Shown here: in pieces, positions 9,376 through 41,191 of the stretch
Position numbering within the stretch: the stretch's first letter is position 1
Layout of the letters: each line of letters begins with the position of its first letter
DNA from: Candidatus Spongiisociaceae bacterium
Lineage (GTDB): Bacteria > Actinomycetota > Acidimicrobiia > Spongiisociales > Spongiisociaceae
Reading direction: 5' to 3'
Assembly (NCBI GenBank): GCA_965202665.1
Contig: OZ241841.1
Span: 2,208,001-2,272,000 of the forward strand
DNA length: 64,000 bases
The notes under the pieces: generated by a model
What the model saw: only the letters and a program-made list of their open reading frames with translations
Databases searched by the model: none
What the model was told of the DNA's origin: nothing
Made by a program: the position numbers and the translations under genes

Positions 9376-9464
9376 GGAGGGGTCGCATAGTCCGGTCTAG
9401 TGCGCGGCACTCGAAATGCCGTAGGGGTTTTCGCCCCTCGTGGGTTCGAATCCCACCCCCTCCG
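9376..9464 (+). tRNA. tRNA-Ser(CGA)
   Basis: Acceptor GGAGGGG/CCCCTCC-G, anticodon arm CGGCA-CT-CGA-AA-TGCCG, long variable arm. Confidence 0.95.
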
Positions 9465-9489
9465 CTTTTGTCGGTGGGTGGGTGGCGAT

Positions 9490-9517
9490 TTGACATATTG
9501 GGGGGGGGGGTTAGGGT
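9490..9517 (+). promoter_or_regulatory. Sigma70-type promoter with G11 spacer tract
   Basis: TTGACA(9490-9495)-TATT-G11(9500-9510)-T-TAGGGT(9512-9517); 16-nt spacer; upstream of the giant gene. Confidence 0.7.
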
Positions 9518-9606
9518 TTGGGGTGCTGGGCTTGTTGTGGGTTCGGCGGCCTGTTGCGGCGGCGGGTTTGGTATTGGTTCGCCGTTGGAGAGTTTGGAGG
9601 TTGGTG

Positions 9607-18600: not shown

Positions 18601-21600
18601 TCGTCGGTTGCGGCGACGTTGGCTGGGTTGACGGTTGTGGATGATGCGATCGTGGAGGGTTCGGAAACGTTCCGGATTACCGCTGCTTCTTCGCAGACGT
18701 TGCGGATTACGGGTGCTTCTTCGTCGGGGGCGGTTGCGGCGGCGACGGTGACTATTTGGGATGATGATGCTGATATTGATTTGTCGGTGTCCCCGTCGGT
18801 GGTGGCGGAAGGCGTGGGGGCGCAGACGATAACGGTCACCGCCCGTTTCAAGGGTTCCAGCACTGTGTTGACGGAGGCGGTGGATGTGTTGGTGTCGGTG
18901 GCGGGCGCGTCGGGGGGCGCGGCGTTGGCGGCTGCGCCGTGTCCGCAGGCGTCGGGGGATGCTTGTACGGATAAGACGGGCAATCAGTTTACGGTTACTA
19001 TTCCGGCGGGTTCGTTGTCGGCTAACGGAACGTTCCAGTTGACCGCCCGTGATGATAACGTCGCCGAGGGGGCGGAGGCTTTGACTGTTAGCGGTTCGGC
19101 TATGGTGGGGGGTTTGGCGGTGGATGTGGAGTCGGCTGTGGTGAACGTGGTGGATCGGGGCATTGAGTTGTCGGTGAGTAGCGGTGGGTCGGCGTTGACC
19201 GGGTTGGGGGAGGACAGCGGTTCCACCACCGTGCGGGTAACCGCCACTTTGCCGGTCGCGTCGAGTACGCCGGTGGTGGTGGGGGTGAACGTGACGGGCG
19301 GGTCCGCCACTTTGGATGATGACAGTATGTTCGGGGCGGGGGAGGATTTTCGGGTTTCTTATCCGCAGGGTTCCCCGCCGGCGGGTTACGGGATGGGGAT
19401 TTCCATTCCCGCGGGGCGGGTCAGCGGTTGGGCGGATATTGTGGTGGCGGTGAACGACGACCGGGCGGCGGAGGGGGCGGCGGAGACGATATCCGTGGAT
19501 GGGGCGGTGGCGAGCGGGAGCGTGCTGGCGGTGGTGGACACCGCTTTTGATATCACCGACAACGACTCCGGTATAACTCTGAACGTAACCGCCGACGCGT
19601 TGGAAGAAGACGGCGACGGGAGAGCGGCCCGGGTGACCGCCTCTTTGGCGGGAACCACCTCCCAGATCGGGGTCGCCACCGTCGTAACGTTGTCGTTCAC
19701 GGCGGGGGCTGGTACGGAAGCGGCTGATTTCACCGCTCCCGGGGCCGGCAGTGAGATAACGGTGACCATCCCGGCTGGCTCGGTCAGCAGTTCCTCCACC
19801 GCTCTGACCGGTTTGGGTATAACCGATGACGCTATCGCCGAGGTGGGGGAAACCATCCAAGTGGGGGGAACCACCCCCGGTCTGTCGGTTACTCCCGCCT
19901 CGCTGACTATTCAAGACGACGACTCGGTGATAGTCCTAACCGCCAGCGCGGCGGCGGCGGAAGGCGGAACTGGGTCGGGGATTACCGTGTCGGCCGCTTT
20001 CCAAACCGGGACCACCTCCTCCGAAATCGCCACCGCCACCGCGGTGACGCTCACCGTGGGGGACGGGACCGCGGTCAGTCCCGCCGACTACCAAAACAGC
20101 GGAACATACACCGTGACCATACCCGCCCAAGCGACCGGCGCCGCCGCCGGAGTATCCCTGGCCGGCCTGACTGTAAAACATGATGACATAACCGAAGGGC
20201 GGGAGACGATCATTATCAGCGGAACCTCCACTTTGGGCGCCGCTGCTTCCGCGGTGTTGGCGATCGCCGACGCCGACACCGCCCTCACCCTGAGCGCTAC
20301 CCCCGATTTGCTGGTGGAAAGACCCAACCATTACATTGTGACCGTCACCGCCGCCTTCGACAACGTAGCCTCTTCCGCCCGTACTGCGGCTGTTCCGGTG
20401 ACGGTCACCCTCGCCGACGACACCGCCACCCACGGCACCAGCAACGACTGGTACACCAACCTGCCCGCCAACCGGCAGCTGACGGTGAACATCCCCGCCG
20501 GACGGACCAGCGGCGCATCCACCTTCCGCATCGTCGCCCGCGCCGACAGCACAGGGGAATCCACCGAACGGGTTTCCCTCACCGCTACCGCGCAGGTAGA
20601 CGGCTCTGCGGTGACCGCCACTTCCGCCCGGTTGGAAATCGTCGACCAAGGCGTGACTCTGGGCTGGGCCAGCAACACCGGAACCCCCCTGACCGCCATC
20701 GCGGAGGACAGCGGAACCACCACCCTGCGCATAACCGCCTCCATACCCGTGGTAGCCCCCGCCGGAGGCGCCGTCATAGGAGTGAACATCGCCAACGGCA
20801 CCGCCGCCCCCGCCGCCGCCTCCACCGGTTTCGGAACCGGGGAGGACTACCGCATCACCCTGCCCACCAGTCCCGCCCCGCCCGCCGGATACGACCTAGC
20901 CGTCGCTATCTCCGCCGGGGAAACCAGCGGCCACAGAACGGTAACGTTGCAGGTAAACGACGACAACACCGCCGAGGGGGCGTCGGAGGGGGCTGACCCG
21001 GAAACTGTCCACATCGAAGGCGGTACCCTGACGCTGGGCGGATCCACCCTGCCGGTGGTGGGGGCCAACCTGAACATCACCGACGACGACCAAGCCCCCG
21101 ATGAAATAACCATCACTCTGCAAACCCCCGGCGGGGCCGACCTCGCCCAAATATTCGAAACAACCGCCACCACTCCGGTGGTTGTAAAAGCCGCCTACCA
21201 GGGTACCAACACTCTGCCCCACTCGGTGATCGTCCCCCTGGGAGTAGCCAAAGTCGGCGACACTGCCATACCCGACACGGACTACCGGGACGTAACCTCG
21301 CCCCCTTCCATTACCATCCCCGCCTACCAATCGCATGGAATGGCCCGTTTCGATCTAGAAGCCATCGACGACGATGATCCTGAAAGCCCCGAAACGATCA
21401 CCGTACGAGGCGACCCCGCCGACACCCTGACCGCCTTCACCGTCGGTGAAGACACCCTAACCCTCGTCGACGACGAAAGCGCCGTAACCCTCTCCCTGGA
21501 TGTCACCCAAGCCCCCGAAGGAACCCGCCAAAATGTTACCGTGAAAGCCGCCTTCTCGGCCGGCGTCACCCAAACCGCTCAGAAAACCATCCGAGTAACC

Positions 21601-22974
21601 GTAACCGACGGAACCGCCACCGCCGGAGAAGACTACCAAACCCATGCCCCGTTCGATATCAGAATCCCCGCCAACAGCAACTACGCCACCACCAACATCA
21701 CCCTCAACCTCACCCCCGACGACCGCGTCTACGAAGGCAACGAAACCCTGGAACTGACCGGATCGCACTCCCAGTTCACCGTCAGACCCGTCACTTTCAC
21801 CATCACCGAAAACGACGCCCAACCCAACCGCATAACCCTATCCGCCAGCCCCAACCGAATAAACGAAGGCCAAACCGCAAACGTAACCATCACCGCCTCC
21901 CTCGGCTCAGTCGCTCTAACCCAAGACATGCAAGTTCCCATCCGTTTGGGAACCGGAGAATCTTACCAACCCGGCCCCGGCGCCCACACCATCCGCATCC
22001 CCGCTGGCCAAACCAGCGGAAACATCCAAATAAGAATACAAATAAACGACGACAACACCCGTGAGGACGCCAAACAAATTCGCATAACCCCCGGCGCCGT
22101 TGCCGGATTCACCGTCACCACCACCGCTATCACCATCCCCGCCAACGACGCCCCCGCTGTCACCACCACCCCCACCGGCGGTGGCGGAGGAGGTGGTGGC
22201 GGTGGAGGAGGAGGTGGTGGTGGCGCCCCAGCTCCGCCCCCCGCAGGAGGGGGAGGGGGCGGTGGAGGCGGTGGAGGAGGGGCCCCGCCCCCACCCGCCG
22301 GAGGAGGTGGCGCCCCGCCCCCGGCTGGTCCCGCTGGACCTGTCGCGCCGGTTGCGCCTCCGCCCGCGCCGGTGGTCTGCCAGGGACGGTTCTGCGACGA
22401 TGACGGCAGCGTCCACGAAGACAACATCGAGTTGATGGCCGTATGGGGTATAACCATCGGATGCGACGCCAACGACTCCACCAAATACTGTCCCAGTGCG
22501 CAAATCACCCGTCGGCAAATGGCCACTTTCATCTACCGGGCAGTCAATCCCCGCTGGCCCATCCAGTTCCCCACCGGCATAGAAATCAACGATGTCCCCG
22601 CCGACGCCAGCTACCGTTCCTACGCCGACTGGCTGGTAAGCATCGGGGCCTTCCAGCTGGACGACGGGAACTTCAATCCCCGGGGCATAGTAACCCGAGC
22701 CGATATGGCGGTGATGATGGTAGCCGCTTTCCCCCATATCCAGGCCGTATCCGAGTCGCAAAACCTGTTCGCGGACACCGGCAACTTGGACGCGGCGGTG
22801 GTGCGGGCTATTGAAGGCATAGCCGATAGCGGAGTGACCAGGGGATGCACCACCACGCCGCCTCTCAGGTACTGCCCCAACAATCCGGTGACCCGGGCGC
22901 AGATGGCGTCCTTCTTCGTAAGGGTAATCAACCAAGCCCCCGCCGCCGACGACGCCGCAGGCGCAAGTTCATAA
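9607..22974 (+). CDS. Giant (~4,450 aa) surface protein with Calx-beta/Ig-like repeats, Gly/Pro linker and C-terminal SLH domains
   Basis: ATG 9607 after GGAGG (the ORF-track start overlaps tRNA-Ser). Hydrophobic signal-like N-terminus, many 'DD.I.EG.ET...TI.DDD' Calx-beta-like units, poly-G/P linker ~22177-22370, SLH motifs ITRRQMATFI, VTRADMAVMM, VTRAQMASFF. Confidence 0.9.
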   Translation: MGRMSGLGSAGGVRALGLGLVVGGVRRVLGLGLAVVLVVGLLPLVPVGVVGQAQKATVSITYRDGGAVVGVNEGEEVRLKLTVEFAGGTAHKGGSIYVQTGGTATRHTDYGMGKDDNCCSTATQFFDNFIDNAIIDWSTGSGTVSTNFTFRAVNDTLFEYYESFKLAVQTFSTGGFQYNDVGFSIRDRDRSLGVSYSVSEVGESAAGQWRSGTVTLSRGEVSGGVFVPATANWTSYGVTPLQVKVVDGTAKNEVSGVTDERRDFVFSHFNDAVVANRRIVSVAKGQVSGTVGNVGFRVLSEVGPRVAEPPEVFYVTVDTSPVWGAPVTIVDDDVTIALSSSSSNSSFAGFAESDIPQPVTVTARFLHAASSVIPTDTVVNVSVKSFSDSPVLTGGGAVVSSGACPQSSGDVCLDVGNSFTVTIPAGELSGSRTVLMTARDEGGTAEGVEGVGFDGSASVGGEAVFVYGHAIRLYDADDPKVIGLSLHEAATGEAGLSSVDEGAAKAVRVRATMTGSWQSVWESQYTRVVWVTPGSVSGSAVLGSCTGSGQSRVCTGDFGRNTGEVTVTMQPKPASQATVGDVTITAYDDTVTEDGESVVFWGRANSQWVVAPAMLTINDADRHVDLGVSPSTIAEPASGSARSDFLFTARFGQMVDNVFVPSTSSTVGSAFSISDFSFVNGSARAEDDNGIPLDFYPVDTANVSRAVSIVAGSVSGTLTWPFNSYADNEAEGTEDFSFRVWSSTAGYSVGVPRVNITDPDSVLNLSIDADGGTTGVQPLREGESSSGAMATAAFPAGSSTIGSATSVALSAGLGTPGAGVASAADFTYAPASPLTVSVGANSVSGSAALGGLTVVDDGVVEGPETFVLSGVVTGAVGVSAADSSVTIVDDDADIDLTVSESSVLEGAGEQAITVKAAFRGSSSVLAAATDVAVTLASAASGGAVLSSAVCPQTSGDVCSDKTNNQFTVSIPAGATSGSATLRLTARDDGNAEGGEGLVLSGTASVGGAAVSVTSANISVFDPGQAIDLSLTDTAQTPVVLTAVGEDGGARVVRVTATAPAAVSAETVVTVRMGLGGSAVSSCSGSGQSRVCTGDFGTVADTSTITIPSGGTTGSVDVTVTPFEDTIAEEDETIRVGGSAGGYAVRGADLTITDQDRTVGVGVGMGEAVYGEGGDPQSGWATRSQCMTSAPFSRTVTGRLGGLSAEGVFTAATSSTLGSNVRGRVRTVDGTATYNQDYSSDGFAVDTMPTAWEFITIAAGSTSGTATVQLVSCVDDVAEGDETYQMTISSLPAGFGAHPQVMTVTDDDSRPGLRGTISEDAGGTVGVEAFLPAGSSELTDPQVVSLTSVTADSAGTADFSYPSPAPVLLTIPAGSTSVSGAIPGLAITDDGSVEGPERLTLGGTDASGAAVSGSLAIVDDDAVIDVLVSPAEVLEQAAAQQIGVTARFRGETSALTAATAVTVTLAGAQNGATLAAACPATSEDACTDQANNQFTISIPAGSTEASGSFMLTARSDNAADNDEDLTVSGAATIGGEAAVVEGTELTIFDPGRSIALSFTDTASTPVPLVDVGEDGGAKVIRVVASAPVAPTSAVTVEVVVGAEGTTAGAGDYSSSSDRVSVTIAANDTSGTADVTITPASDTITEDLETIRFAGSATGYAVVANDLVIQDQDRAVKVMAAEGDLVVREPREGEALTNQYNGILKFFRGMTAVLGGVSGGVFTPSTSSTYSSNLGMRVRVDAGTATVGGQTSTTDDIFHEHGEADDPLEVTINAGALSGNVNIVYAPTAVPVVAVLKDTVAEPDQIFYFRPAVPSGWTAVRETITIQDSNQIAITVDTDSATGTQTTLAEGATGSGVTVSAAYYNATTSVITSATNVTLSAAAPTPAGAGKAVATDFTYSPATPNAITFPANNATPSATATLAGLTVTDDAIVEGPETITVSGSSSLGDATPATITIVDDDDDITLSVFPASVAEGSGAQTIAVTAAFAGTTSALTTATDVTVTIASPSSNGATLAACPSSTTDVCATGLTSSQLTVTIPAGETSSTATFQLTARDDTTADDDEKLTVTGSATVGGATATITGTEMSVRDPGRAITLSFTDTAQTPAALTAVEEDGGAQTVRVVATVGTAPAADTDVTVTVGAAGGTAILGTLGDYLRSTGEATVTIAANNTSGTADVTITPVVDRVTEDHETIRFAGAATGYAIVPADLQITDQDRVIKFTLNPDTQDELPYRQNSISLSAVAALGGTSGGVFTPSTSSTYSGSMNLLGWSPEGYGQNAQTRSVATYVIEDGDPFFLHSYRRWFSIPSGSFASSSQSMDHSVEINDTADPDEGVRRVGARQNTVPAGFVQEQAWFRIRDVADSRVVFGVDTDGNTMGNQTTIEEGASGSGVEVWAGWPPGVTNNRHASPVTATLTMEEDTEPGAGEAGDADFDYAPPSPLSFTIPVKVAEDLMATPPVVGVSGLRSSSGTLAGLSVVDDSIVEGPETIAFGGTSSLGAGHSVTGELTIADDDADITLSVFPAVVAEGSGAQTITVTARFAGTTSVLTTATNVTVTIAAAASDGAVVDADACPSESGDDVCTNKAGNQFTVAIPAGELEGSGVFQLTAREDSTADDGEGLIVSGSAMVGSEAVEVTGAAMTVHDADKTITLSFTDTAQTPTALTEVEEDGGAQTVRVVATAPAAVGASPVTVSVTVGAAGGEAALNADYTRSSASATVTIPAQGTSGSADVTITPRSDTITENQETIVFTGSASGYGVVGAGLGIADQDRYIRMSPTGGDRFNEPPVVFAGHSVGAKADLGGVTDGVFTASTASTYSVALNNLRVTMRGVTATEGIAGSPVGPRDFVWTGNGGGVDSRFLSIPAGSLSATAVPHTLQLFRYAREVEPLETIEVVATEPAGFTVVPGIISILDTIQTQLTLQVDTDRVESGNQSVLAEGAAGSSVDVSGRYRGTSNKLGEDTVVTLSTAVETPGAGKATAADFTYAPSSPNSFTIPQAAVSSSVAATLAGLTVVDDAIVEGSETFRITAASSQTLRITGASSSGAVAAATVTIWDDDADIDLSVSPSVVAEGVGAQTITVTARFKGSSTVLTEAVDVLVSVAGASGGAALAAAPCPQASGDACTDKTGNQFTVTIPAGSLSANGTFQLTARDDNVAEGAEALTVSGSAMVGGLAVDVESAVVNVVDRGIELSVSSGGSALTGLGEDSGSTTVRVTATLPVASSTPVVVGVNVTGGSATLDDDSMFGAGEDFRVSYPQGSPPAGYGMGISIPAGRVSGWADIVVAVNDDRAAEGAAETISVDGAVASGSVLAVVDTAFDITDNDSGITLNVTADALEEDGDGRAARVTASLAGTTSQIGVATVVTLSFTAGAGTEAADFTAPGAGSEITVTIPAGSVSSSSTALTGLGITDDAIAEVGETIQVGGTTPGLSVTPASLTIQDDDSVIVLTASAAAAEGGTGSGITVSAAFQTGTTSSEIATATAVTLTVGDGTAVSPADYQNSGTYTVTIPAQATGAAAGVSLAGLTVKHDDITEGRETIIISGTSTLGAAASAVLAIADADTALTLSATPDLLVERPNHYIVTVTAAFDNVASSARTAAVPVTVTLADDTATHGTSNDWYTNLPANRQLTVNIPAGRTSGASTFRIVARADSTGESTERVSLTATAQVDGSAVTATSARLEIVDQGVTLGWASNTGTPLTAIAEDSGTTTLRITASIPVVAPAGGAVIGVNIANGTAAPAAASTGFGTGEDYRITLPTSPAPPAGYDLAVAISAGETSGHRTVTLQVNDDNTAEGASEGADPETVHIEGGTLTLGGSTLPVVGANLNITDDDQAPDEITITLQTPGGADLAQIFETTATTPVVVKAAYQGTNTLPHSVIVPLGVAKVGDTAIPDTDYRDVTSPPSITIPAYQSHGMARFDLEAIDDDDPESPETITVRGDPADTLTAFTVGEDTLTLVDDESAVTLSLDVTQAPEGTRQNVTVKAAFSAGVTQTAQKTIRVTVTDGTATAGEDYQTHAPFDIRIPANSNYATTNITLNLTPDDRVYEGNETLELTGSHSQFTVRPVTFTITENDAQPNRITLSASPNRINEGQTANVTITASLGSVALTQDMQVPIRLGTGESYQPGPGAHTIRIPAGQTSGNIQIRIQINDDNTREDAKQIRITPGAVAGFTVTTTAITIPANDAPAVTTTPTGGGGGGGGGGGGGGGGAPAPPPAGGGGGGGGGGGGAPPPPAGGGGAPPPAGPAGPVAPVAPPPAPVVCQGRFCDDDGSVHEDNIELMAVWGITIGCDANDSTKYCPSAQITRRQMATFIYRAVNPRWPIQFPTGIEINDVPADASYRSYADWLVSIGAFQLDDGNFNPRGIVTRADMAVMMVAAFPHIQAVSESQNLFADTGNLDAAVVRAIEGIADSGVTRGCTTTPPLRYCPNNPVTRAQMASFFVRVINQAPAADDAAGASS

Positions 22975-23043: not shown

Positions 23044-23358
23044 TCAAAGAGCCAATAATGCTCTTATCGCGTCGACGCCGCGAGTCACGTTACCGTTCAG
23101 ATAGTCGCGATGGCTTTCAATCAGGGCTTCCATCTCTTCAGGATCCCCCAGTATGGAAAGGGTTTCTTCCAGCGACTCCAGGGTTTCCCGCCCCTGGGGA
23201 GACAGTCCCCCATCGACGCTTCGCGCCCGCAGAGCCGCAAGCCGGCTTTCCAGAGATTCCATTTCCCGCTGGGCGGTCAGCAGGCCGTCGTTCCGTTGCA
23301 CCCGATCAAGAAACTCCACGACCTGCTGGTCGACGGTGAGCGTTGGTTGGTTGGTCAT
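23044..23358 (-). CDS. Small protein with Phd/YefM-antitoxin-like C-terminus
   Basis: ATG 23358 after GGAGGAG; ESLEETLSILGDPEEMEALIES resembles the YefM/Phd toxin-binding helix; paralog at 31756-32043. Confidence 0.65.
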   Translation of the reverse strand: MTNQPTLTVDQQVVEFLDRVQRNDGLLTAQREMESLESRLAALRARSVDGGLSPQGRETLESLEETLSILGDPEEMEALIESHRDYLNGNVTRGVDAIRALLAL

Positions 23359-23444
23359 GTCGCTCCTCCAATATATCCGCGTCTGCCCGCCTCGCCGGGG
23401 TTGGCGGGTATAGGATAATGGTAGGTCTTCGTCAGGAGGGACGG

Positions 23445-26400
23445 ATGATTGACAGTTTCGCCGGGCTGACCGGTCGGAGGGTTTCGGTGGACGGCGCCGG
23501 CGCCCCGGCCGAGGCCCGGGATTTGCAGGCGGTGATGTTGGACGCATCCTTTGAGGTGTTGCTGGCCGGGTGGGATTCGGCCCGTCCTCCCGCTCCGGGC
23601 AAACTGCTGTCCCTCCACCGGTGGCGGCTCGGCTCACAGAACTTTTCGCTGGTGGTTGCGGTTACCGACCGACAGGGCAAGGTGTGGCTGGCCGGTCCGG
23701 GCGGGAGAGACCAGCCGGTGGGTCCGCTCACCGAATCGGAGGCCGCCCGCATGTTGCAGGCCGCTCTGGAGGAACCGTCCGGCCCGTCCGCCCATAGACG
23801 GATAGCCGACCTGCTGAAAGCCCGTCGCAAGGACGATTCCGTTCCCGGCCTGGGCGGCGAAGGCCTGTTCGCCCAGCACTACCTGGCCAAAGTGCTACCC
23901 GGTCAGGGCGTTTGGCGGGAATCCGTCGCCCGGGCCCGCCCCTGGCTGTGCCTGCGCGGCATGGCCCTGATAGAAGCGATGGGGTTTTCCGCCCTTCGCC
24001 CCGTTGGGAACGGGTGCGTCCTGACAGATAGGATATCTCAAGGGAACGGGGGGGGGGGTAGGCTTGGTGAGAGCCCTAATGCGGTGGCGGTGTTGCTTGA
24101 CCGCGTCGAGCATTTCGATGCGGGCAGCACGCGTTTCGACGCTTCCCCGGTAGAATACGGCCTGTCCCTGGCCCGCGAGGAGCAGGCGGGTTGGCTGATT
24201 CTCCTGCGCGGTTCGCAAATCCGGCTTTATTCGGCCAAACCGGGCGTGGGAGTGGGCAGCAGGGGGCTGACCGAAACCTTTTTTGAGCTGGACCTGGCCC
24301 TGCTGGAAGAAGACAAGGCGGGCTACCTTGATTTAGCGTTTTCCGCCGCCGCCCTAGTCGAAGACGGAACGGTAAAACAGTTGCTGGAGGGCTCACGCGA
24401 CTACGCGGTGGGTTTGGGGGATCGCCTGCGGGAGCGCATCTACGTGGAGGCCATCCCCGAATTGGCGGTAGCGGTGGCTAAAGAACTGGAACGGCTGGAC
24501 CACCAGGCTGGCAAAGATCTGGCCCGCGCCTACCGAATCACCCTCCGCATCCTGTTCCGGTTGCTGTTCCAAGCCTACGCGGAAGACTGCGGGTTGTTGC
24601 CTTACGGAACCAACGAAGAGTACACCAAATATTCGCTGAAACAACACGCCCGCGACCTGGCGGATCCTCCCGAAGAAATGTTTGATCCCCGCTCCCATAA
24701 AACTTGGGACGAACTTATGTTGGTGTGGGGAGTCATCGACACCGGTGACGCCGTCATGGGGGTTCCCGCTTACAACGGTGGTCTGTTCCTTTCCGACCCG
24801 GAGCGTTCCCCCGATGGCGCCCTCATTTCTCAAATGCGGTTGGATAATGCGGTGGTGGGCCATGCCCTGCGCCGACTGCTGGTGGATGTGGACAGCCTTG
24901 GCGTTCCCGGACCGGTGGATTTTCGGTCGCTGTCCATTCGGGAGTTCGGGACCATCTACGAAGGCCTGCTGGCTTCGTCCCTGTCCCGGGCCGACCAAGA
25001 CCTGACTTTGGACAAAAAACAGACCTACGTCCCAGCCAAGGCGGCGGACAAAGTGGAAGTGCGGGCAGGTGAGATTTATTTCCACAACACCTCCGGCATG
25101 CGCAAATCAGCAGGTGTTTATTTCACCCCCCGGTTTGCAGTAGACCACCTGTTGGAACGGTCGCTGGTCCCGGTGCTCAGGGATCATCTCAAAAAAATCA
25201 ACGCAATGTTGGATGAAGACGATGATGCGGGCGCCTACGAGTCGTTTTTCGATTTCCGAGTGTGCGACCCGGCAATGGGGTCGGGCAACTTCCTAGTGGC
25301 GGCCATTGATCATATGGCCGAGGAGATGACCCCGTTTTTGCGTGCCCACCCTATACCGGGTGTGACCGGTGAGTTGAACCGATTGGAGGCGGCGGCAAGG
25401 AAAGAGTTGGGCGATGCGGCCGATCAGTATTCGTTGGATCGGTCAATGTTGCTCCGCCGCCAGATAGCCCGCCACTGCATCTACGGCATCGACAACAACG
25501 ATATCGCAGTGGAGTTGGCAAAAGTCGCCGTGTGGTTGCACACGTTTGTCCCCGGTTTGCCAATGTCCACCTTGGACCACAATCTGGTGTGCGCTGATTC
25601 GCTGACCGGAATAGAGTCCATTGAAGAGGCTATAGAAATACTGGACCCGCAACGCAATCCGGGGGTGGTGTCGCTGATGCGCGGGCCCCTCGAGGAAAGC
25701 CTGGAGGAGTCCCGAAGTCATCTCCAAGATGCGGCCAAAATTTCGGAATCCACCACGGCCGAAATCAGGCAAGCGGACAAGCACCGGGACAGGGCCGTTC
25801 AAGTCGCCGGTAAAGCCAAGGCCATCTTTGACGCGGCGGTGGCCGCCCGCATCGGCGAGTTGGGCGATTTGACGATGGTAGAGCCGGAAGAGATTGTCCG
25901 TATGTCCCAGCAAACAGAGGTTCAAGACCGGATAGCTATTCTCAATCCTGGTCATATGCCTTACCTGTTTCCGCAAGTTTTCCTCCGAGACCCCTCAGGG
26001 TTTGATGTAATGGTTGGCAATCCTCCCTGGGAAAAAATTAAAGTCGAGGAACATGCCTGGTGGGGTTTACGCTTTCCAGGTTTACGGGGATTACCTTTGG
26101 TGGCAAAGCGAGAGAGGCTTAAAACCCTAAAACACGACCGCCCTGATCTGGTGGATGAATATGAACAGGCTGTTACCCTGACCGCAGAGTTGCGGAAGAT
26201 TATAAGCAAGGGACCTTATCCTGGAATGGGTACTGGTGATCCTGACCTCTTCAAAGCCTTCTCATGGCGGTTTTGGAAGTTATCTCGCGATGGCGGTGCT
26301 GTAGGTATTGTTTTGCCCTCTGGTGTATTAAAAGGTAAGGGTTCGGAAAGATGGCGTAAGCAGGTTTTCGAGGAGTGTTGTTTTGTTGATTTAGCTCCTT

Positions 26401-26906
26401 TGATAAACACAGGGGGCTGGGTTTTTAATGATGTGCATAAGCAGTATATAGTAGGTTTGATGGCTATAGGAAAGGGTAGCGAACAATTTGGTTCCGTACG
26501 TATCAGAAATCTTTGCCGAAGTGTGAGCGATTTAGCACGAGTTGATGCTAGTAATGTGGTGCAAATAGATGAGCTTTTGGCTTGGACACCTGAAGCTCTT
26601 TTCCCTTTATTTCCTAGCACGGATGCTATTAAGGTTTTTAGAAAAATGATTAAGTACCCCAGAATAAAAAGAAGCGAGCGTCAGCGAGCGTCAGCGAGCG
26701 TCAGCGAGCGTCAGCGAGCGTCAGCGAGCGTCAGCGAGCGTCAGGTACAGCCTCTACAAGCTACCACAAATTGGAGGACAAGTCCAGTAACCGAATTACA
26801 CACAAGAAAAGACAGAAAGTATTTCTTAGGAGCAGAACTTCTTGGCGAGCATTACCCATTAGAGAACTCGAAACCACGCCCGACAGACATAGGTTCACAG
26901 CAATGA
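23445..26906 (+). CDS. Eco57I-like (type IIG family) N6-adenine DNA methyltransferase
   Basis: ATG 23445 after AGGAGG; EFGTIYEGLL, RKSAGVYFTP, VCDPAMGSGNFL, IYGIDNN, DVMVGNPPW. Confidence 0.93.
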   Translation: MIDSFAGLTGRRVSVDGAGAPAEARDLQAVMLDASFEVLLAGWDSARPPAPGKLLSLHRWRLGSQNFSLVVAVTDRQGKVWLAGPGGRDQPVGPLTESEAARMLQAALEEPSGPSAHRRIADLLKARRKDDSVPGLGGEGLFAQHYLAKVLPGQGVWRESVARARPWLCLRGMALIEAMGFSALRPVGNGCVLTDRISQGNGGGGRLGESPNAVAVLLDRVEHFDAGSTRFDASPVEYGLSLAREEQAGWLILLRGSQIRLYSAKPGVGVGSRGLTETFFELDLALLEEDKAGYLDLAFSAAALVEDGTVKQLLEGSRDYAVGLGDRLRERIYVEAIPELAVAVAKELERLDHQAGKDLARAYRITLRILFRLLFQAYAEDCGLLPYGTNEEYTKYSLKQHARDLADPPEEMFDPRSHKTWDELMLVWGVIDTGDAVMGVPAYNGGLFLSDPERSPDGALISQMRLDNAVVGHALRRLLVDVDSLGVPGPVDFRSLSIREFGTIYEGLLASSLSRADQDLTLDKKQTYVPAKAADKVEVRAGEIYFHNTSGMRKSAGVYFTPRFAVDHLLERSLVPVLRDHLKKINAMLDEDDDAGAYESFFDFRVCDPAMGSGNFLVAAIDHMAEEMTPFLRAHPIPGVTGELNRLEAAARKELGDAADQYSLDRSMLLRRQIARHCIYGIDNNDIAVELAKVAVWLHTFVPGLPMSTLDHNLVCADSLTGIESIEEAIEILDPQRNPGVVSLMRGPLEESLEESRSHLQDAAKISESTTAEIRQADKHRDRAVQVAGKAKAIFDAAVAARIGELGDLTMVEPEEIVRMSQQTEVQDRIAILNPGHMPYLFPQVFLRDPSGFDVMVGNPPWEKIKVEEHAWWGLRFPGLRGLPLVAKRERLKTLKHDRPDLVDEYEQAVTLTAELRKIISKGPYPGMGTGDPDLFKAFSWRFWKLSRDGGAVGIVLPSGVLKGKGSERWRKQVFEECCFVDLAPLINTGGWVFNDVHKQYIVGLMAIGKGSEQFGSVRIRNLCRSVSDLARVDASNVVQIDELLAWTPEALFPLFPSTDAIKVFRKMIKYPRIKRSERQRASASVSERQRASASVSERQVQPLQATTNWRTSPVTELHTRKDRKYFLGAELLGEHYPLENSKPRPTDIGSQQ
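24048..24058 (+). repeat. G11 homopolymer inside the MTase CDS (currently in frame)
   Basis: aac-GGGGGGGGGGG-tagg, encoding NGGGGR. Confidence 0.9.
26673..26742 (+). repeat. Tandem repeat (AGCGAGCGTC)x7 inside the MTase CDS
   Basis: Seven exact 10-bp copies; encodes SERQRASASV repeats. Confidence 0.97.
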
Positions 26907-27649
26907 AAGATAACCTGTGGCCAGTCTATGGTGGACGTTCTTTTAATATTTGGTGCCCAGATACGGGTAAATATTATGCGGCAACCGACCCTGATGCTAT
27001 CACTGAGTATCTCCAAGGGAAGCGAGAGCGTAGCAGGACCAGTTTTGCTGAAATGCCGCAAGAGTGGCTTGATGATTTAGATACTCTTCCTTGTAAGCAT
27101 CCCCGTATTGCTTTTTGTGATGTTGCGAATAGTGTAGATAGTAGAACGATAATCGCGGCTCTTGTACCGCCGAATATAGTGATTACAGAAGTAGCACCAT
27201 ATCTGATATGGCCTTCAGGGGAAGTTAGCGATCAAGCCTTCCTACTAGGGGTGTTATCATCGATGATTCTCGATTGGTACGCTCGTCGCATTGTATCGAC
27301 TCATTTCAAGTTCTACATCTTTAATTCTTTGCCGGTGCCGGATGCTGATCCTGGGGATCCGGTTGTTCGGCGGGTGGTGGAGATTTCGGGGCGGTTGGCG
27401 GCGGTGGATGAGCGGTTTGCGGACTGGGCGGAGGAAGTGGGGGTGCCGGTGGGGACTTTGCAGGAAGAACCGGAGCGGTCGGACGCCATCTACGAACTGG
27501 ACGCCTGCGTGGCTTTGCTCTACGGCTTGGATGAAGACGACCTGCGAATCATCTACGAAACCTTTCACGAAACGACCGACTATTCGCAACGGCATGTGGC
27601 GGTGCTGGCCCATTTCCGCAGATGGCGGGAAGAGCGGGAACCCCTGTGA
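26903..27649 (+). CDS. Specificity/target-recognition-like C-terminal module of the type IIG enzyme as a separate ORF
   Basis: ATG overlaps the upstream TGA (ATGA); WPVYGGRSFNIW, PRIAFCDV, RTIIAALVPP, AFLLGVLSSMILDWYARR, ELDACVALLYGL typical of IIG TRD/C-termini. Confidence 0.8.
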   Translation: MKDNLWPVYGGRSFNIWCPDTGKYYAATDPDAITEYLQGKRERSRTSFAEMPQEWLDDLDTLPCKHPRIAFCDVANSVDSRTIIAALVPPNIVITEVAPYLIWPSGEVSDQAFLLGVLSSMILDWYARRIVSTHFKFYIFNSLPVPDADPGDPVVRRVVEISGRLAAVDERFADWAEEVGVPVGTLQEEPERSDAIYELDACVALLYGLDEDDLRIIYETFHETTDYSQRHVAVLAHFRRWREEREPL

Positions 27650-30600
27650 CCGCCTCCCGCAGGCATTTTCCCCCTGTTTTCGCCACCAATCGAGCCGGGA
27701 CCGAAACCCGGGCGGGGGAGCGGGTGGCGGACGAGATCAACCGGTTGCTGTCCGGGATGCGTACCCAACTGGCCGACGCCCCCCGTCTGGCCATCGCCAC
27801 CGCTTTTCTAAATACGGGCGGATATGAACTGCTGGCCGACGAACTGGAGCAGGCCCCCCGGGTGCGCCTGCTGTTGGGGGCGGAACCGGACATTTCCGCC
27901 ACCCGGCCCGTCCTGCGGCGCATATCCAAAGAGCAGATCGGGGAAGCTCTGCGGCGGCACGAGCAGTGGCTGGCCTCCGAACGGGATTTGACCGGTTTCA
28001 CCCGGGAGGCCGACCGAGCCGCCCGGCGGATGGTGAAATGGCTGCAGGCTAAAACCGAAGCGGGGGAGCGGCGGGTGGAAGTGCGCCGGTACGCGGACGG
28101 GTTTTTGCACGGCAAAGCGTTCATCACCGAGCATCCCAGCTTGCCGGCGGTGCTGGCCGGGTCGTCCAACTTCACATACGCCGGGCTGGCGTCCAACGCC
28201 GAACTCAACCTGGGATACCCGTCCGGGGAGCACACCCATCTGGTGCAGGAATGGTTCAACGAACTGTGGGAACACTCCGCCCCCTACCGGTTGGACGAGT
28301 TGTACGCCGCCCGCTGGGAACCGCACGCCCCATGGCTGATTTTCCTGCGGATGCTGTGGGAACTGTACGGCGGGCATTTTGACGAAGACGACGACCTCCG
28401 GGCCCGCACCGAACTGGGACTGACCGGTTTCCAGCGGGAAGGGGTGGCCCGCATGTTGCGCATTTTGGAGGAGCACGGCGGGGTGATCGTGGCCGACGAA
28501 GTCGGTTTGGGGAAAACGTTTATGGCCGGTGAGGTGATCAAACGGGCCGCTTCCGTCAGCCGCCAGCAGGTGCTGGTCATCGCCCCCGCCGCCCTCAAAG
28601 CCGGAATGTGGGAGCCGTTTCTGAAACAATACGATTTTCCCCGCCGGGTGGAAGTGATGTCCTACGAAGAGTTCCGCAACCGCTGGGGGGACGCGGAACG
28701 GGAAGCAATGCGCAGCCAGTTGGACGAATACGCCCTGGTGGTGGTGGACGAAGCCCACAATTTGCGCAATCCGAACGCCCAGCGCACCGAAGCGGTCAAC
28801 GCCCTGGTGGGCGGCTCCCATCCCAAACGGCTGATGTTGCTCACCGCCACCCCGGTCAACAACACCCTGTTCGACCTTCATTCCCTGGTGTCGCTGTTCA
28901 TCCGCAACGACGCAGCTTTCGCAGCCCGGGGCATCCCCTCCATCTACCAATACATAAAAACCGCCGAAGAAATGGATCAGGACGCCCTTTCCCACGAGCA
29001 CCTGTTCGACCTGTTGGATCAGGTGGCGGTGCGCCGCACCCGCCGTTTTGTCAAAAAGCACTATCGGGGCGAAAAGATCAAAGACCACCGGGGCGAGGAG
29101 AAAACCATCCAGTTCCCCCAGCCGGAGTTGAAAAGACTGGACTACGACCTTGACCAGGCGGGTCTGGAGTTGGTGGAAGCGGTCGTTTACGCGTTGGAGA
29201 ACTCCGAAGAGGACGCCCTCCGCTACGAGGAACGCCAGCGCGATCCGGACCGGTTGATGCTGGCCCGTTACACCTCCGGGGCCTACCACATGGAAGCGAA
29301 CCACGAATTCGACTATCAGGTGTCCAACGCCGGGTTGCTCCGCTCCACCCTGCTGAAAAGGCTGGAATCATCCCCCATCGCTTTGGCCAACACTTTGGGG
29401 AGAATGGTTGAATCCCATCGGGCTTTCCTGGAGGCGTTGGCGGAAGGCTGGGTGCTGGCGGGTGAAGCCCTGCGGGAATGGACCTCCTCCGATGCGGAAG
29501 ACTTCGACGAGTTTCTGGAAGGGTTGGACGACCGCGCCTCCGCCGGGGCGGACCCCGTCGACCGCTATCACGTAGCAGAATTGCGAGAAGACGTGGAAAG
29601 CGACTTGGAAATGCTGGGCCGGTTGCGGGAGCGGGTCGGGGAGGCGGCGGACGGGCCCAACCCCAAATTGGACAAGTTGCTGGAAAGGCTGGGGGAGATC
29701 GCCGCCGAAGCCTGTTTGGTCAGCCGGGACGGGGTCAGTTCGGGGAACCGGCGCAAAACCATCGTTTTCTCCAGTTTCGCCGACACCATTAAGTCGGTGG
29801 CCGAAAAGGTGTCGGTGCGGGTGGTGAACTGCGCCGACGACGATCCGCTGGCCGACTTCCGGCAACGGATAGCGAAGCCGGTGTTCGGGGCCAAAAGGGG
29901 ATTCAATCCGGAAACGCGGGCCCGCATTATCGCCGGGTTCGCCCCCGAAACGGCGGGCGGGAGCAAAGGGGGCGAAGATAAATACGACCTGCTGTTCACC
30001 ACCGACATCCTGTCGGAAGGGGTGAACCTGCAACAGGCGGGGCGGATCATCAACTACGACCTGCCTTGGAATCCGATGCGGGTGGTGCAACGGCACGGGC
30101 GCATCGACCGGATCGGTTCTCTGCACAGCCGGGTGTTCATCGACTGCTTCTTCCCTTCCGCCCATCTGGACCGGCTGCTGGGGCTGGAGGCGAGGCTGCG
30201 CCGCAAACTGGCTTTGGCGGACGCGGCGGTGGGAACCGGGCAGGTGTTGCCCGGATTCGAATCGGGCGACGCGAAAGTGTTCAGCGACATTGAACGGTTG
30301 CGGTGGGAAGACGCCGGTTTTCTGGAAGAACGGGGAGGGGCGGCGGCCCTGTCCGGCGAAGAATACCGGCGGCGGTTGCGGGCGGCCGCCGCCCACGCCT
30401 CGGCCGAAATGGAACAAGCGCGGGCGTTGCCCTACGGCTCCGGCTCCGGTTTCATCAACCCCCGTTTCGCCGGCTCCGGGTACGTGTTCTGCATCCGGGT
30501 GGGGGAGGGGGGAGGCCACCCGCCCCGGTTCCGGTTTGTTCCCGTCGACGGCGACTGGGGTCCCCTCCTGGACGGCGACGACCGGCCGGTTGTGAAATCG

Positions 30601-31074
30601 GATACGCTGACCGCGCTGGTGGCCGCCGACCCGGGGGATGAAACCGCCGCCCGGGAATTATCCGAGGTGGCCTACGACCGGGCTTTCGACGCCTGGGAGG
30701 CGGCCCGGGAGGACGTATACCGGGAGTGGATGCGCCTCACCGATCCCAGCAACCTGCGTCCCGACGTCCCCAAGGCGTTGCGGGAAGCCACCGAGATGGT
30801 GCACAAACATGGGGATGTCCTGACTACGGAAGACAGGGATGATCTGGTGAAACGGCTCAACACCCGCCCCAGCCGCCGCATAGTGAAAACCATCCGGGAG
30901 CTGGTCAGATCCGAGGAGGAGGCGCCGGCCGCCAAAATCCGGCGGTTGCGCCAGTTGGTGGAAGAAGCCGGCTTGCAACCCCCTGAAATCCCCGACCCCC
31001 TGCCGGAAATCACCCGGGACGACATCCACCTGGTGGCATGGACCGCCGTCAACGTCCCGGCCAAGTACAGTTAG
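27646..31074 (+). CDS. PLD-nuclease domain + SNF2-family helicase
   Basis: GTGA overlap; FLHGKAFITE...GSSNFT (PLD HxK), ADEVGLGKT, VVDEAHN, LTATP, SEGVNLQ, PWNPMRVVQRHGRIDRIG. Confidence 0.93.
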   Translation: MTASRRHFPPVFATNRAGTETRAGERVADEINRLLSGMRTQLADAPRLAIATAFLNTGGYELLADELEQAPRVRLLLGAEPDISATRPVLRRISKEQIGEALRRHEQWLASERDLTGFTREADRAARRMVKWLQAKTEAGERRVEVRRYADGFLHGKAFITEHPSLPAVLAGSSNFTYAGLASNAELNLGYPSGEHTHLVQEWFNELWEHSAPYRLDELYAARWEPHAPWLIFLRMLWELYGGHFDEDDDLRARTELGLTGFQREGVARMLRILEEHGGVIVADEVGLGKTFMAGEVIKRAASVSRQQVLVIAPAALKAGMWEPFLKQYDFPRRVEVMSYEEFRNRWGDAEREAMRSQLDEYALVVVDEAHNLRNPNAQRTEAVNALVGGSHPKRLMLLTATPVNNTLFDLHSLVSLFIRNDAAFAARGIPSIYQYIKTAEEMDQDALSHEHLFDLLDQVAVRRTRRFVKKHYRGEKIKDHRGEEKTIQFPQPELKRLDYDLDQAGLELVEAVVYALENSEEDALRYEERQRDPDRLMLARYTSGAYHMEANHEFDYQVSNAGLLRSTLLKRLESSPIALANTLGRMVESHRAFLEALAEGWVLAGEALREWTSSDAEDFDEFLEGLDDRASAGADPVDRYHVAELREDVESDLEMLGRLRERVGEAADGPNPKLDKLLERLGEIAAEACLVSRDGVSSGNRRKTIVFSSFADTIKSVAEKVSVRVVNCADDDPLADFRQRIAKPVFGAKRGFNPETRARIIAGFAPETAGGSKGGEDKYDLLFTTDILSEGVNLQQAGRIINYDLPWNPMRVVQRHGRIDRIGSLHSRVFIDCFFPSAHLDRLLGLEARLRRKLALADAAVGTGQVLPGFESGDAKVFSDIERLRWEDAGFLEERGGAAALSGEEYRRRLRAAAAHASAEMEQARALPYGSGSGFINPRFAGSGYVFCIRVGEGGGHPPRFRFVPVDGDWGPLLDGDDRPVVKSDTLTALVAADPGDETAARELSEVAYDRAFDAWEAAREDVYREWMRLTDPSNLRPDVPKALREATEMVHKHGDVLTTEDRDDLVKRLNTRPSRRIVKTIRELVRSEEEAPAAKIRRLRQLVEEAGLQPPEIPDPLPEITRDDIHLVAWTAVNVPAKYS
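31050..31069 (-). mobile_element. Orphan IS481-family terminal inverted repeat
   Basis: CAACGTCCCGGCCAAGTACA matches the reverse complement of the IS ends at 45342 and 60094; followed by target-like GTTAGG. Confidence 0.75.
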
Positions 31075-31755: not shown

Positions 31756-32043
31756 TTAACAGGTTCGGAGAGCCTTTACGGCGTCGGTTCCTTCGATAAA
31801 GTCGCCGTTCAGGTAGTCGCGGTACCCTTCAAACAAGGCTCCCATCGCCTCGGGATCCTGCAGGATGGAGAGGGTTTCTTCCAAAGATTCCATGTCTTCC
31901 CGCTCTTGGGCAGTCAGGCCGTTGACGCTACGCGCTTGCAATTCTGCGAGGGCGGCCTGCAGAGAGGCGATCTCCTGCGGGTCGCTCAACTTGCCGTTGT
32001 CGCGCTCTACCCGACCGATGAATTCTTGTGCTTTTTGGCGCAT
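31756..32043 (-). CDS. Second Phd/YefM-like small protein (paralog of 23044-23358)
   Basis: ESLEETLSILQDPEAMGALFEGYRDYLNG aligns with the first copy along its length. Confidence 0.7.
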   Translation of the reverse strand: MRQKAQEFIGRVERDNGKLSDPQEIASLQAALAELQARSVNGLTAQEREDMESLEETLSILQDPEAMGALFEGYRDYLNGDFIEGTDAVKALRTC

Positions 32044-32135
32044 TTGCGGGTTTCCTTTGATTGCCGTTGCTGTTTTCCAGGTAGCAGGCTGAGCGGTGGT
32101 GGGTAACCGCCCGCCAAACCGGTTTCTCCCCTGTC

Positions 32136-32522
32136 TGGCGGATATAGGATAATGGCCGGCCTTCGTCAGGCGGGACGGATACGATGGCTGACAGTTTGGC
32201 CGGGCTGACCGGTCGGCGGGTTCCGGTGGACGGCGCCGGCGCTCCCGCCGAGGCCCGGGATTTGCAGGCGGGGACGTTGGGGCGCATCGTTTGAGGCGTT
32301 GCCGGCCGGGACGTTCTGCTGGAACGGCTCAACACCCGCCCCAGCTGTCGCATCGTGAAAGCCATCCGGGAGCTGGTCAGATCCGAGCAGGCCGGGCCGG
32401 CCGCCAAAATCCGGCGGCTCCGCCAGTTGGTAAACAAAGCCGGCTTGCACCCCCCTGAAATCCCCGACCCCCCTGCCGAAAATCACCTGGGACGACATCC
32501 ACCTGGTGGCGTGGAGCGCCGT
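32136..32522 (+). pseudogene. Internally deleted remnant of the MTase-helicase operon
   Basis: 32136-32310 resembles 23401-23570 (promoter and MTase start); 32308-32522 resembles 30836-31050 (helicase end); frameshifted. Confidence 0.85.
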
Positions 32523-32564
32523 CCAAAGCGCGGCGGCCCGCTCATAGGCAAACCGGTAGCCGTA

Positions 32565-32610: not shown

Positions 32611-32705
32611 CCTGGGTGGTACCAGAGTTACGGAGGGGCCCTCCGCCCGGTTCTACCCCGAAACCGCTACCCGCCCGCCCGCCGGGGCGAACCGGAAGAA
32701 ACCCG

Positions 32706-33068
32706 ACCGCGGCGGCCTGACAATCCCCGACCAGCCGGGTGGAATAGAACCGGAGGGGTTCGGTCGTCCGTCCTGGGCTAACCCGCCCAGCGTTCGCCCA
32801 GTATCCCCCCGGAGGGGCGGAGGAAATAGGGCAGAACCCGCCGGGTTACCGGTTCGTGGTTTCGACCCGTCCGGCCTGTTCGTCCTCCGTCCGGGGTTCT
32901 ACCGGGTAGTCCGGGCGGGGCGGAACGGGGTCGGCGGCGGTCGGGTAGTTCGGAACCCGATAGTTCGGGTCGGCGGCGCGCCGGATAATGTCGTGGGGGT
33001 TCGGGAATTTCGCGTCGGTCATCGTATCCTCCGGGTTTCTATCGGTCGGTTCTATTCTATTCCTCCGG
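32706..33068. repeat. 363-bp direct repeat, copy 1 (copy 2 at 33945-34307)
   Basis: Near-identical by eye; includes a 58-aa ORF (32846-33022, minus). Confidence 0.9.
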
Positions 33069-33279
33069 TATCCGGGCGCGGAGTTCCCCCGCCGGAGGGG
33101 GCGGTTCGTAATCCGTCATCGTTCCCGCCCTCCGGTACCCGGTCGGCGGTAGCGACGGGGGGCGAGTTTCTGTTCGGCTAGCGGTCGGGTTCGGGTTATC
33201 CGCCGGGGGATAACCGGAGTGGCGGCGGGGGATAATCCGCGCCGAGGATGCGGGTTCGGAAGTTGCGGAATCCGAAGGC

Positions 33280-33860
33280 GACGCGTTGATGAGGTTGTTG
33301 GCTGATTCGGTGGGTCCGTTGCTCACTCGGGCGTGATGCCAAGCGACGATCTGGGAATGCCAGGTGTGGAGGGTGCGTCCGAGTTGGTTGAGTTCGGGGG
33401 AGCAGGATTGGTCTTGGAGTTCCGCGGTGAGCAGGCGGGTGTATTGGTCGCCTTCGCCTGGATGGTGGGTTTGGTAGATTCCCCGTACGGTTTCTTTAGC
33501 GTGCCATGCGTCGCGTACTTCCCCGCGGGGTCTCCTGCTTGGAGGAGGCCGGTCAGTTTTTGCTCGCTGCGGGGGTGGAGTCGTTCGCGGGCGAGGGTGA
33601 GGAGTTTGCGTATCCGGTACAGGTCGTCGCCTTTCCTTCCCCGGTGCCCCAATGTTTCTTCTTGCACGCGGCGGCGCACCCGGTCCAGGCACAGGTTGGC
33701 CAGCCGGACGACGTGGAACGGGTCGGCGATCTGAACGGCGTTGGGCAACGCCCGCTGGTAGGCGGCCCGGTAAGCTCCGGACAGATCCAGGGTGGCCCAT
33801 CGTATTTTTCTCCCGCCGCCAGGCCGGCTGCTCCAGCAGCCACCGTACGGCTCCTTTAGC
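33280..33860 (-). pseudogene. ISL3-family transposase fragment (3' part, frameshifted)
   Basis: TLDLSGAYRAA, ADPFHVVRLAN, GHRGRKGDDLYRIRKLL, then SNGPTESANNLI in another frame. Confidence 0.85.
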
Positions 33861-34084
33861 GTCTTATTCCTGAGAAAACGTCGATCAGCCGACGGTTGCG
33901 GATGTCCACCGCCGCGGTTATCCATATCCGCCGTCGCCAACCCTACCGCGGCGGCCTGACAATCCCCGACCAGCCGGGTGGAATAGAACCGGAGGGGTTC
34001 GGTCGTCCGTCCTGGGCTAACCCGCCCAGCGTCCGCCCAGTATCCCCCCGGAGGGGCGGCGGAAATAGGGCAGAACCCGCCGGG

Positions 34085-34261
34085 TTACCGGTTCGTGGTT
34101 TCGACCCGTCCGGCCTGTTCGTCCTCCGTCCGGGGTTCTACCGGGTAGTCCGGGCGGGGCGGAACGGGGTCGGCGGCGGTCGGGTAGTTCGGAACCCGAT
34201 AGTTCGGGTCGGCGGCGCGCCGGATAATGTCGTGGGGGTTCGGGAATTTCGCGTCGGTCAT
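34085..34261 (-). CDS. Small Pro-rich hypothetical protein (58 aa, MTDAKFPNPHDII...)
   Basis: GGAGG RBS, ATG and TAA; below ORF-track cutoff; duplicated at 32846-33022. Confidence 0.55.
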   Translation of the reverse strand: MTDAKFPNPHDIIRRAADPNYRVPNYPTAADPVPPRPDYPVEPRTEDEQAGRVETTNR

Positions 34262-34295
34262 CGTATCCTCCGGGTTTCTATCGGTCGATTCTATT

Positions 34296-34625
34296 CTATT
34301 CCTCCGGGTCGCCCTCCGCTAGTTTTTCTACCCGATATAGTTCAGCGTCCGCGCGGAGTTCGTAATCCGATTTCCCGGCGATTTCGTCCGCGCGGTCGTG
34401 CAGGCGGGCTAATCCCGACCGGGCTACCCTCCGGGCGTATTCGTCCGGGTCGTTGCCGCCCGGCGTTCGGACGAACCCAGCGAGTTCGTCCTCCGAATAC
34501 GCGGCGAGCGTCGCGCCGAATATTCGTCCGATTTCGTCTGCTACCCGCCGGAGTTCGGCGCGTAACGCCCATTCTATCCGGGCGCGGAGTTCCCCCGCCG
34601 GTGGGGGCGGTTCGTAATCCGTCAT
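34296..34625 (-). CDS. Hypothetical protein (109 aa), phage-like
   Basis: Helical, charged sequence; ATGA overlap with the upstream ORF. Confidence 0.6.
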   Translation of the reverse strand: MTDYEPPPPAGELRARIEWALRAELRRVADEIGRIFGATLAAYSEDELAGFVRTPGGNDPDEYARRVARSGLARLHDRADEIAGKSDYELRADAELYRVEKLAEGDPEE

Positions 34626-41137: not shown

Positions 41138-41191
41138 CTCCCGCATCTCCCGCATCTCCCGCATCTCCCGCATCTCCCGCATCTCCCGCAT
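41138..41191 (+). repeat. Tandem repeat (CTCCCGCAT)x6
   Basis: Six exact 9-bp copies. Confidence 0.95.

Follow-up and report, generated by a model that had tools for sequence, protein, structure and literature searches.

What does a short tandem repeat do inside an adenine methylase gene, at the very point where the catalytic part of the enzyme passes into the part that recognises its target? The question is raised by a stretch of 64,000 nucleotides from a Candidatus Spongiisociaceae genome (the window), in which a methylase gene carries a 10-bp repeat, ends shortly behind it and overlaps a second ORF that holds the rest of the recognition domain. The features needed for the argument are as follows.

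23445..26906, + strand: N6-adenine DNA methyltransferase, large chain, 1153 aa in the 7-copy state (Pfam Eco57I/N6_Mtase; PADLOC PDLC03620)
24048..24058, + strand: G11 run, in frame now, predicted separate ON/OFF switch (10 or 12 G lead to stops at 24151 or 24059, respectively)
26673..26744, + strand: repeat (AGCGAGCGTC)x7, the putative frame selector, in the hinge between methylase domain and target-recognition domain
26772..26825, + strand: loop copy A, WRTSPVTELHTRKDRKYF, T-x-x-H class, in frame at 3n+1 units
26788..26790, + strand: TAA that cuts off the 3n state before any loop (predicted OFF)
26843..26896, + strand: loop copy B, WRALPIRELETTPDRHRF, R-x-x-E class, in frame at 3n+2 units, its reading frame running on into the remainder of the recognition domain
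26903..26906, + strand: ATGA stop/start overlap, end of the split methylase and start of the separate C-terminal recognition subunit
26903..27649, + strand: C-terminal part of the target-recognition domain, 248 aa, TaqI/CamA-like fold (PDLC03620 positions 1097-1371; fold comparison)
27646..31074, + strand: PLD nuclease-SNF2 helicase, 1142 aa, predicted restriction partner (Pfam PLDc_2, SNF2, Helicase_C)

A single PADLOC Type IIG model of 1378 positions, PDLC03620, spans both the methylase (E 2.6e-182) and the downstream recognition ORF. The methylase start at 23445 was placed from P0004 together with an upstream AGGAGG; motif I (DPAMGSG at 25266, residue 608) and NPPW (26019, residue 859) are present, motif I precedes motif IV, and the recognition domain is C-terminal and of TaqI/MmeI-like fold, all as in Type IIG/IIL enzymes. 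The single polypeptide that also defines that class is at present split in two and arises only at 3n+2 units. As judged by the chain lengths of relatives, a single chain is the normal form of this methylase family (83 of 120 among the homologues listed have 1300-1400 aa), and the TaqI_C domain is matched in 22 of 82 members at E<=1, at best with 7e-4.

The third gene overlaps the preceding one by GTGA, retains intact HGK, GSSN and Walker A/B motifs, and has a homologue downstream of the methylase in 59 of the 65 clusters of relatives with several loop copies and in 41 of the 48 with one (see below). In the methylase N-terminus itself, of which the first 216 residues lie outside the model, no conserved PD-(D/E)xK catalytic motif is visible and no Pfam hit was obtained; the Atlas lead for this region is MmeI_N at 0.88 on 14% of members, and an AVAVLL consensus stands where the catalytic motif would be expected. 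Because no nuclease motif is evident there, restriction is attributed, by inference, to the PLD-SNF2 partner. Neither of two known defence types accounts for the locus: the DISARM class 1 protein DrmD scores 128 bits against a cut-off of 610, and the ORF list holds only two large genes here, while the BREX protein PglX scores 20 bits against a cut-off of 500, the likeness to PglX being one of fold only. A search of the organism's own genome with the family profile found no paralogue of the methylase, and exact look-up of the window's proteins returned no match.

The repeat stands as seven perfect units of AGCGAGCGTC at 26673-26742 (TRF: 7.2 copies, 100% matches), the copy number given by the sequence-only reading, and the 2.77-Mb genome contains just one further occurrence of the unit. 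As is typical of phase-variable genes, it is a perfect repeat within a gene and its unit is not a multiple of three. The array lies directly before the residue that aligns to PglX 678, the hinge of BrxX comprising residues 638-675, and both the repeat and the peptide read out of frame behind it map to the flexible hinge between methylase and recognition domain. When copy numbers from 0 to 12 were simulated in silico, 3n+1 units led to the TGA within ATGA 26903-26906, 3n+2 units to a single open chain through the downstream ORF, and 3n units to the TAA at 26788. The split, fused and truncated outcomes that had been proposed from the letters were thus reproduced, as was the proposal that copy number alters subunit architecture, split at 3n+1 and a single chain at 3n+2. 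A sequencing error at the ATGA was discarded as an explanation of the split, the contigs of runs X10 (which may be the source sample), X12 and X5 being gapless at 26715-27700 and the same type of overlap being common in relatives.

What that reading had overlooked is that the frames differ in predicted base-reading residues; its three states and change of architecture stand, and its interpretation is in this respect incomplete. It had taken the fused frame to give only a different linker. The fusion is real, and the supposed linker contains at 26843-26896 its own copy of the conserved loop, which reads WRALPIRELE in the fused frame and WRTSPVTELH in the split frame. Loop copies A and B are paralogous segments of 54 nt, identical at 28 of 54 positions and offset by 71 nt. 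Three of the listed differences of strain X5 fall inside copy A, and all three are synonymous in frame A and residue-changing in the fused frame. The suspicion that the fused form might be inactive through loss of WRTSPVTELH finds no support, given the paralogous loop, the single chain normal for the family, and the existence in nature of a fused allele (P0001) with the same unit and the same repeat-derived peptide. The model of P0001 has a mean pLDDT of 88.7 and falls below 50 only in the insert 863-910 and one stretch of five residues; the insert has no counterpart in the alignment, and a loop is what modelling would give there anyway.

Sequence and profile searches of the recognition domain against solved structures gave no match, and fold comparison alone identified it. 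A model that begins with the initial residue of copy B (pLDDT 96.4) matches M.BseCI, CamA, PglX and MmeI (Z 11.7-14.6), its residue 1 falling on CamA 340 (Z 13.9, rmsd 3.5, 181 aligned), Salmonella PglX 678 (Z 13.5, rmsd 3.6, 184 aligned) and MmeI 636 (Z 11.7, rmsd 3.9, 186 aligned). Provided that the first ten residues contain no gap, an assumption made because the structural alignment gives the ends of ranges only, the variable loop residues 7 and 10 would fall on CamA Q346/I349, PglX A684/S687 and MmeI Y642/K645. In BrxX the methylated adenine is taken to be the fifth base of the site, so that the pair at its second base would presumably be the same -3 pair. In the available text of the respective reports, CamA Gln346/Ile349 read A3 of CAAAAA (PMC8187626), E. 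coli BrxX Lys681/Asp684 read G2:C2' (PMC11842806), and MmeI Tyr642/Lys645 read position 2, the mutation K645M shifting TCCRAC to TACRAC (PMC4833311); the base read in CamA and MmeI lies three before the methylated adenine (PMC8187626, PMC4833311). This agreement of three structures on an i/i+3 pair, as transferred through the model, is the strongest evidence that the loops would read a base. The code is unlikely to be a simple one, since BrxX mutants at this position turned out degenerate and not cleanly switched (PMC11842806, as available), and similar residues in the MmeI family give different specificities (PMC4833311). By analogy with BrxX K681/D684 the R-x-x-E loop would read G:C, and the QG-N loop found in a third frame of relatives is predicted to read A.

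Since the frames differ in these predicted residues, a change of specificity is the likely output of the repeat. The locus is accordingly best described, and quite likely correctly, as a repeat-driven specificity switch in an adenine methylase that is paired with a PLD-SNF2 nuclease-helicase. The number of AGCGAGCGTC units, varying by slippage that is presumed to occur in living cells, would set which loop copy is translated onto the methylase, and the choice of loop would likely alter which base is read at position -3 relative to the methylated adenine. In the present 3n+1 state the methylase would carry the T-x-x-H loop, stop at the ATGA and read a predicted non-G at -3; ribosomes would presumably restart at the ATGA to yield the 248-aa subunit separately, and loop A is predicted to dock onto this subunit. 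At 3n+2 units translation of copy A would give a disordered insert in the hinge, and the R-x-x-E loop would form part of one chain with the rest of the domain, with G predicted at -3; at 3n units the chain would end ahead of both loops (OFF). The PLD-SNF2 partner, guided by this recognition domain, would restrict sites that lack methylation, putatively those of phages. The G11 run is a candidate for an additional ON/OFF switch in the window's methylase; the site is out of frame in the loci L021 and L022, and the annotated starts of P0001-P0003 and P0123 lie just after the run.

The first alternative to be weighed is a plain ON/OFF switch in which only the fused chain works and both the split and the truncated states are OFF. 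Repeats in methylase genes usually act in this way, as far as the available parts of PMC13076061 and PMC10123105 describe them, and such a switch would accord with the single chain as the family norm; exact ATG-A overlaps, moreover, arise by chance, in 14 of 46 single-copy controls (a level of 30%). In the comparable frames of relatives, by comparison, the stop falls exactly on the start in 50 of 56, with a Shine-Dalgarno-like word before the start in 28 of these 50 overlaps versus 2 of the 14 in controls; the window's own locus has only a weak such word before the ATG at 26903. Of the 125 loop frames without fusion, 63 have their stop beside an in-frame C-terminal start, 48 reach one via an overlap relay, and 14 do neither. 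It was also observed that the fused frame is absent from 21 of the 65 multi-copy clusters, in which the C-terminal gene is nevertheless kept open, and that 41 of the 51 loci with three copies are at present split, with coupling or a relay. Furthermore, the non-fused copies are most variable at the third codon position of their own frame (0.18/0.08/0.34, n=42; 0.23/0.12/0.35, n=50), as fused and single copies likewise are, which suggests that the non-fused frames are under purifying selection at the protein level. Three-copy loci, finally, leave no frame for OFF, and they often possess a separate upstream repeat (23 of 34, against 3 of 26 with two copies and 0 of 43 with one). Together, the stop/start overlaps, the own-frame selection and the loci that lack a fused frame indicate that the split form likely works, and a plain ON/OFF switch is unlikely.

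A predicted complex of the split pair is consistent with a working split form: the ipSAE is 0.89 against 0.00 for the best control (a mark reached by 116 of 157 solved pairs and by 2 of 215 mismatched pairs), contacts agree between runs to at least 81%, the partners have a pLDDT of at least 88, and the residues of loop A lie within the predicted interface. This is weak support, since the partners are halves of one gene, were folded with single-chain alignments and could be expected to pass.

The specificity switch requires that the repeat vary, and unit counts do indeed vary among relatives, as the sequence-only reading had suggested could be checked. Five assemblies with 100% identical flanks (L029, L101-L104) carry from 8.8 to 12.8 CGGA units and read all three loops between them, and L091, L093 and L095 (95-99.7% identical) likewise differ in repeat and read all three loops; assemblies with identical flanks may share one campaign, and assembly error in repeats can mimic such variation. 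For the window's own locus the evidence is indirect (P0001 and k-mer depth). The depth of collapsed-repeat contigs relative to their flanks gives estimates near 5 (X1), 7 (X10) and 11 (X5) units, to be read with caution because depth is not copy number; the depth of X12 (2-3) is too low for an estimate, and the one congeneric genome is too diverged for counting AGCGAGCGTC units.

The layout extends well beyond this genome. The survey comprised 161 loci including the window's own, of which 149 had both anchors and 144 were analysed, forming 113 clusters; 12 were dropped for want of an anchor, one for want of the motif, and four (L049, L078, L090, L107) for having more than 700 nt between anchors, these four carrying three loop copies each, and L043 was scored as single-copy with a weak second copy visible by eye. 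Two or three loop copies occur in 65 clusters and a single copy in 48; a repeat accompanies several copies in 64 clusters and one copy in 2, and is lacking beside several copies in 1 and beside one copy in 46. In every one of the 65 multi-copy clusters the copies lie in distinct frames and belong to distinct classes, most commonly QG-N / x-H / R-D (33) and x-H / R-D (16), and 103 of 104 spacings between loop copies are 2 mod 3. The upstream repeats have units of 1, 2, 4, 5, 7, 8 or 10 nt, never a multiple of three. Single-chain homologues have one loop each, of the types R..D (22), R..H (15), small..H (about 30) and QG-D..N (7; n=83). Genome matches are mostly titled Acidimicrobiia, including Ca. 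Poriferisodalis, Poriferisocius and Spongiisociaceae, and the runs that contain the stretch are marine or sponge metagenomes wherever labelled.

Several loci carry further elements. A second frameshifting repeat lies 400-600 nt upstream of the loop array, in a surface loop of the methylase, in L047, L065, L031, L084, L079 and others, and is commoner where there are three copies; in six such loci inspected, no alternative motif copies were found behind it. An extra (AG)n run between loop array and C-terminal part, just before the WPVY motif, occurs in L033 and L038 (also in L007 and L008), and it could re-fuse any loop frame. In the four dropped loci some 700-900 nt, which include a homopolymer run, separate the three-copy array from the best C-terminal match downstream, possibly reflecting tandem C-terminal subunits with a further switch. 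The distant subfamily members L013, L015 and L018 (about 36-42% identity), which are outside the counts, show (AG)n and, behind it, two loop variants that differ in frame.

Across the 113 clusters the association of repeat with multiple copies gives a Fisher p of 5e-28 when kinship is ignored; this value is set aside because the relatives are kin and provide only 6 independent pairs on supported branches, of which 3.6 are concordant and 0 discordant (sign test p 0.125). On the quick tree used for this purpose the multi-copy label needs 10 changes, 6 of them forced by supported branches, and a single multi-copy clade is rejected (p-AU 1.6e-51); losses or recombination could also explain the scatter. 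A hint of repeated origin comes from the arrays with 50- and 77-nt spacing, whose places in the tree are among single-copy loci. For the family, then, the layout is on balance probably a frame-multiplexed switch in which one repeat selects, much as with mutually exclusive exons, among up to three base-reading loops and translational coupling supplies the rest of the domain in trans, so that the restriction-modification target would change two or three ways, reversibly and with no recombination, widespread in sponge-associated Acidimicrobiia and probably of more than one origin.

The survey also bears on the remaining alternatives. Under the first of these, split and fused forms would both work and read the same sequence, and only activity or assembly would differ; both forms are indeed predicted to fold, and the available text on the MmeI family notes that similar residues at the loop position give different specificities, with no one-to-one map of residue to base (PMC4833311). 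The copy classes nevertheless differ in 65 of 65 loci, at positions that read -3 in three solved enzymes, and a mere switch of architecture is thus very unlikely.

It could also be held that the extra loop copies are silent cassettes, brought into use by deletion or gene conversion, and that the repeat acts only as an ON/OFF switch. Compatible with this are the single-copy or repeat-less loci L040, L068 and L128, which are nested among multi-copy ones, and the protein P0003, whose identity to the window's methylase drops from 98% to 63% after residue 820 and which has a Gly run where the 10-mer peptide would be; this pattern, on sequence comparison, shows exchange of a 3' cassette between close relatives. 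Silent cassettes would, however, need neither 2-mod-3 spacing nor open frames nor stop/start overlaps, and this explanation is highly improbable. Equally improbable is a specificity switch whose 3n+1 halves are joined by ribosomal frameshifting instead of restart: the shift needed is indeed -1, and a preprint, in the part available, reports leaky suppression of frameshifts at a Mycoplasma mod repeat, but a canonical slippery heptamer is present in only 1 of 65 arrays, so that a programmed frameshift was rejected, and the stop lies exactly on the start codon, +1 arrangements showing 8-nt overlaps or 1-nt gaps instead.

Compared with known systems, the specificity switch proposed here has its closest precedent, by a different mechanism, in the H. 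pylori Type IIG enzymes Hpy99XIV (JHP1272) and HpyAXVI (HP1353-54), which have two repeat switches, one ON/OFF and one changing GGWTAA to GGWCNA (Krebes et al., PMC3936762, in the part available). Both JHP1272 and the present methylase are adenine methylases of single-chain type with two repeats, one for ON/OFF switching and one for specificity, both roles being putative in the present case. In JHP1272, as far as that text goes, the frameshift appends an extra C-terminal domain that acts at -1/-2, whereas here mutually exclusive 18-residue loops in different frames stand upstream of a shared domain and are predicted to act at -3, up to three specificities would be available, and the rest of the domain would be a coupled subunit. 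As in Type I hsdS genes with repeats (NgoAV; Atack et al., PMC7383803), repeat length would alter specificity and not expression alone; the NgoAV-type switch is one between a full-length and a truncated or extended two-domain S subunit, and alternative overlapping-frame peptides are not described in the available portions of that paper. MmeI (PMC4833311), BrxX/PglX (PMC11842806) and CamA (PMC8187626) share the fold and the i/i+3 pair at the domain start that reads -3, but, within the accessible text, have one fixed loop per gene, and changes were engineered and not repeat-driven. Invertible hsdS shufflons such as SpnD39III likewise provide reversible switching among several states of specificity, but according to the available part of PMC10123105 they need recombination between repeats, while here slippage alone would suffice and no DNA would be rearranged. 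No description of the layout was found in the literature searched, which was for the most part open-access, and it is absent from the available parts of PMC13076061, PMC12707154, PMC10123105 and the leaky-frameshift preprint.

If the specificity switch is real, it represents a third route to a reversible change of methylase specificity, besides DNA inversion and the truncation or addition of domains, and one that uses all three reading frames of about 200 bp; a recognition domain could work when naturally split after its first loop, and many "frameshifted" gene annotations in these symbionts would be active alleles. Isogenic natural pairs and triplets (x-H, R-D/E, QG-N) could then reveal the residue-to-base code at one position, which would be useful for the engineering of specificity.

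Some further features of the window and genome are recorded here. GC content falls from about 0.6 to 0.41-0.51 across positions 25900-27300, approximately. Downstream of the locus, at 31805-32523, lies the remnant of a second copy of it, with a 70% match to 23093-23570 (a small ORF and the 5' end of the methylase) and an adjoining part with an 89% match to the helicase 3' end at 30836-31050. A 369-bp direct repeat (32700-33068 and 33939-34307, 99%) flanks ORF fragments within 32700-34307, which we take to be transposase-like. An ORF of 4524 aa at 9400-22974, with repetitive beta-rich units and a Gly/Pro-rich linker near its C-terminus, is presumably a giant surface protein. A perfect (CTCCCGCAT)x6 repeat at 41138-41191 has a unit that is a multiple of three. 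Perfect simple repeats number 83 in the whole genome (G000); most are runs of at least 11 G or C, which points to phase variation at many loci.
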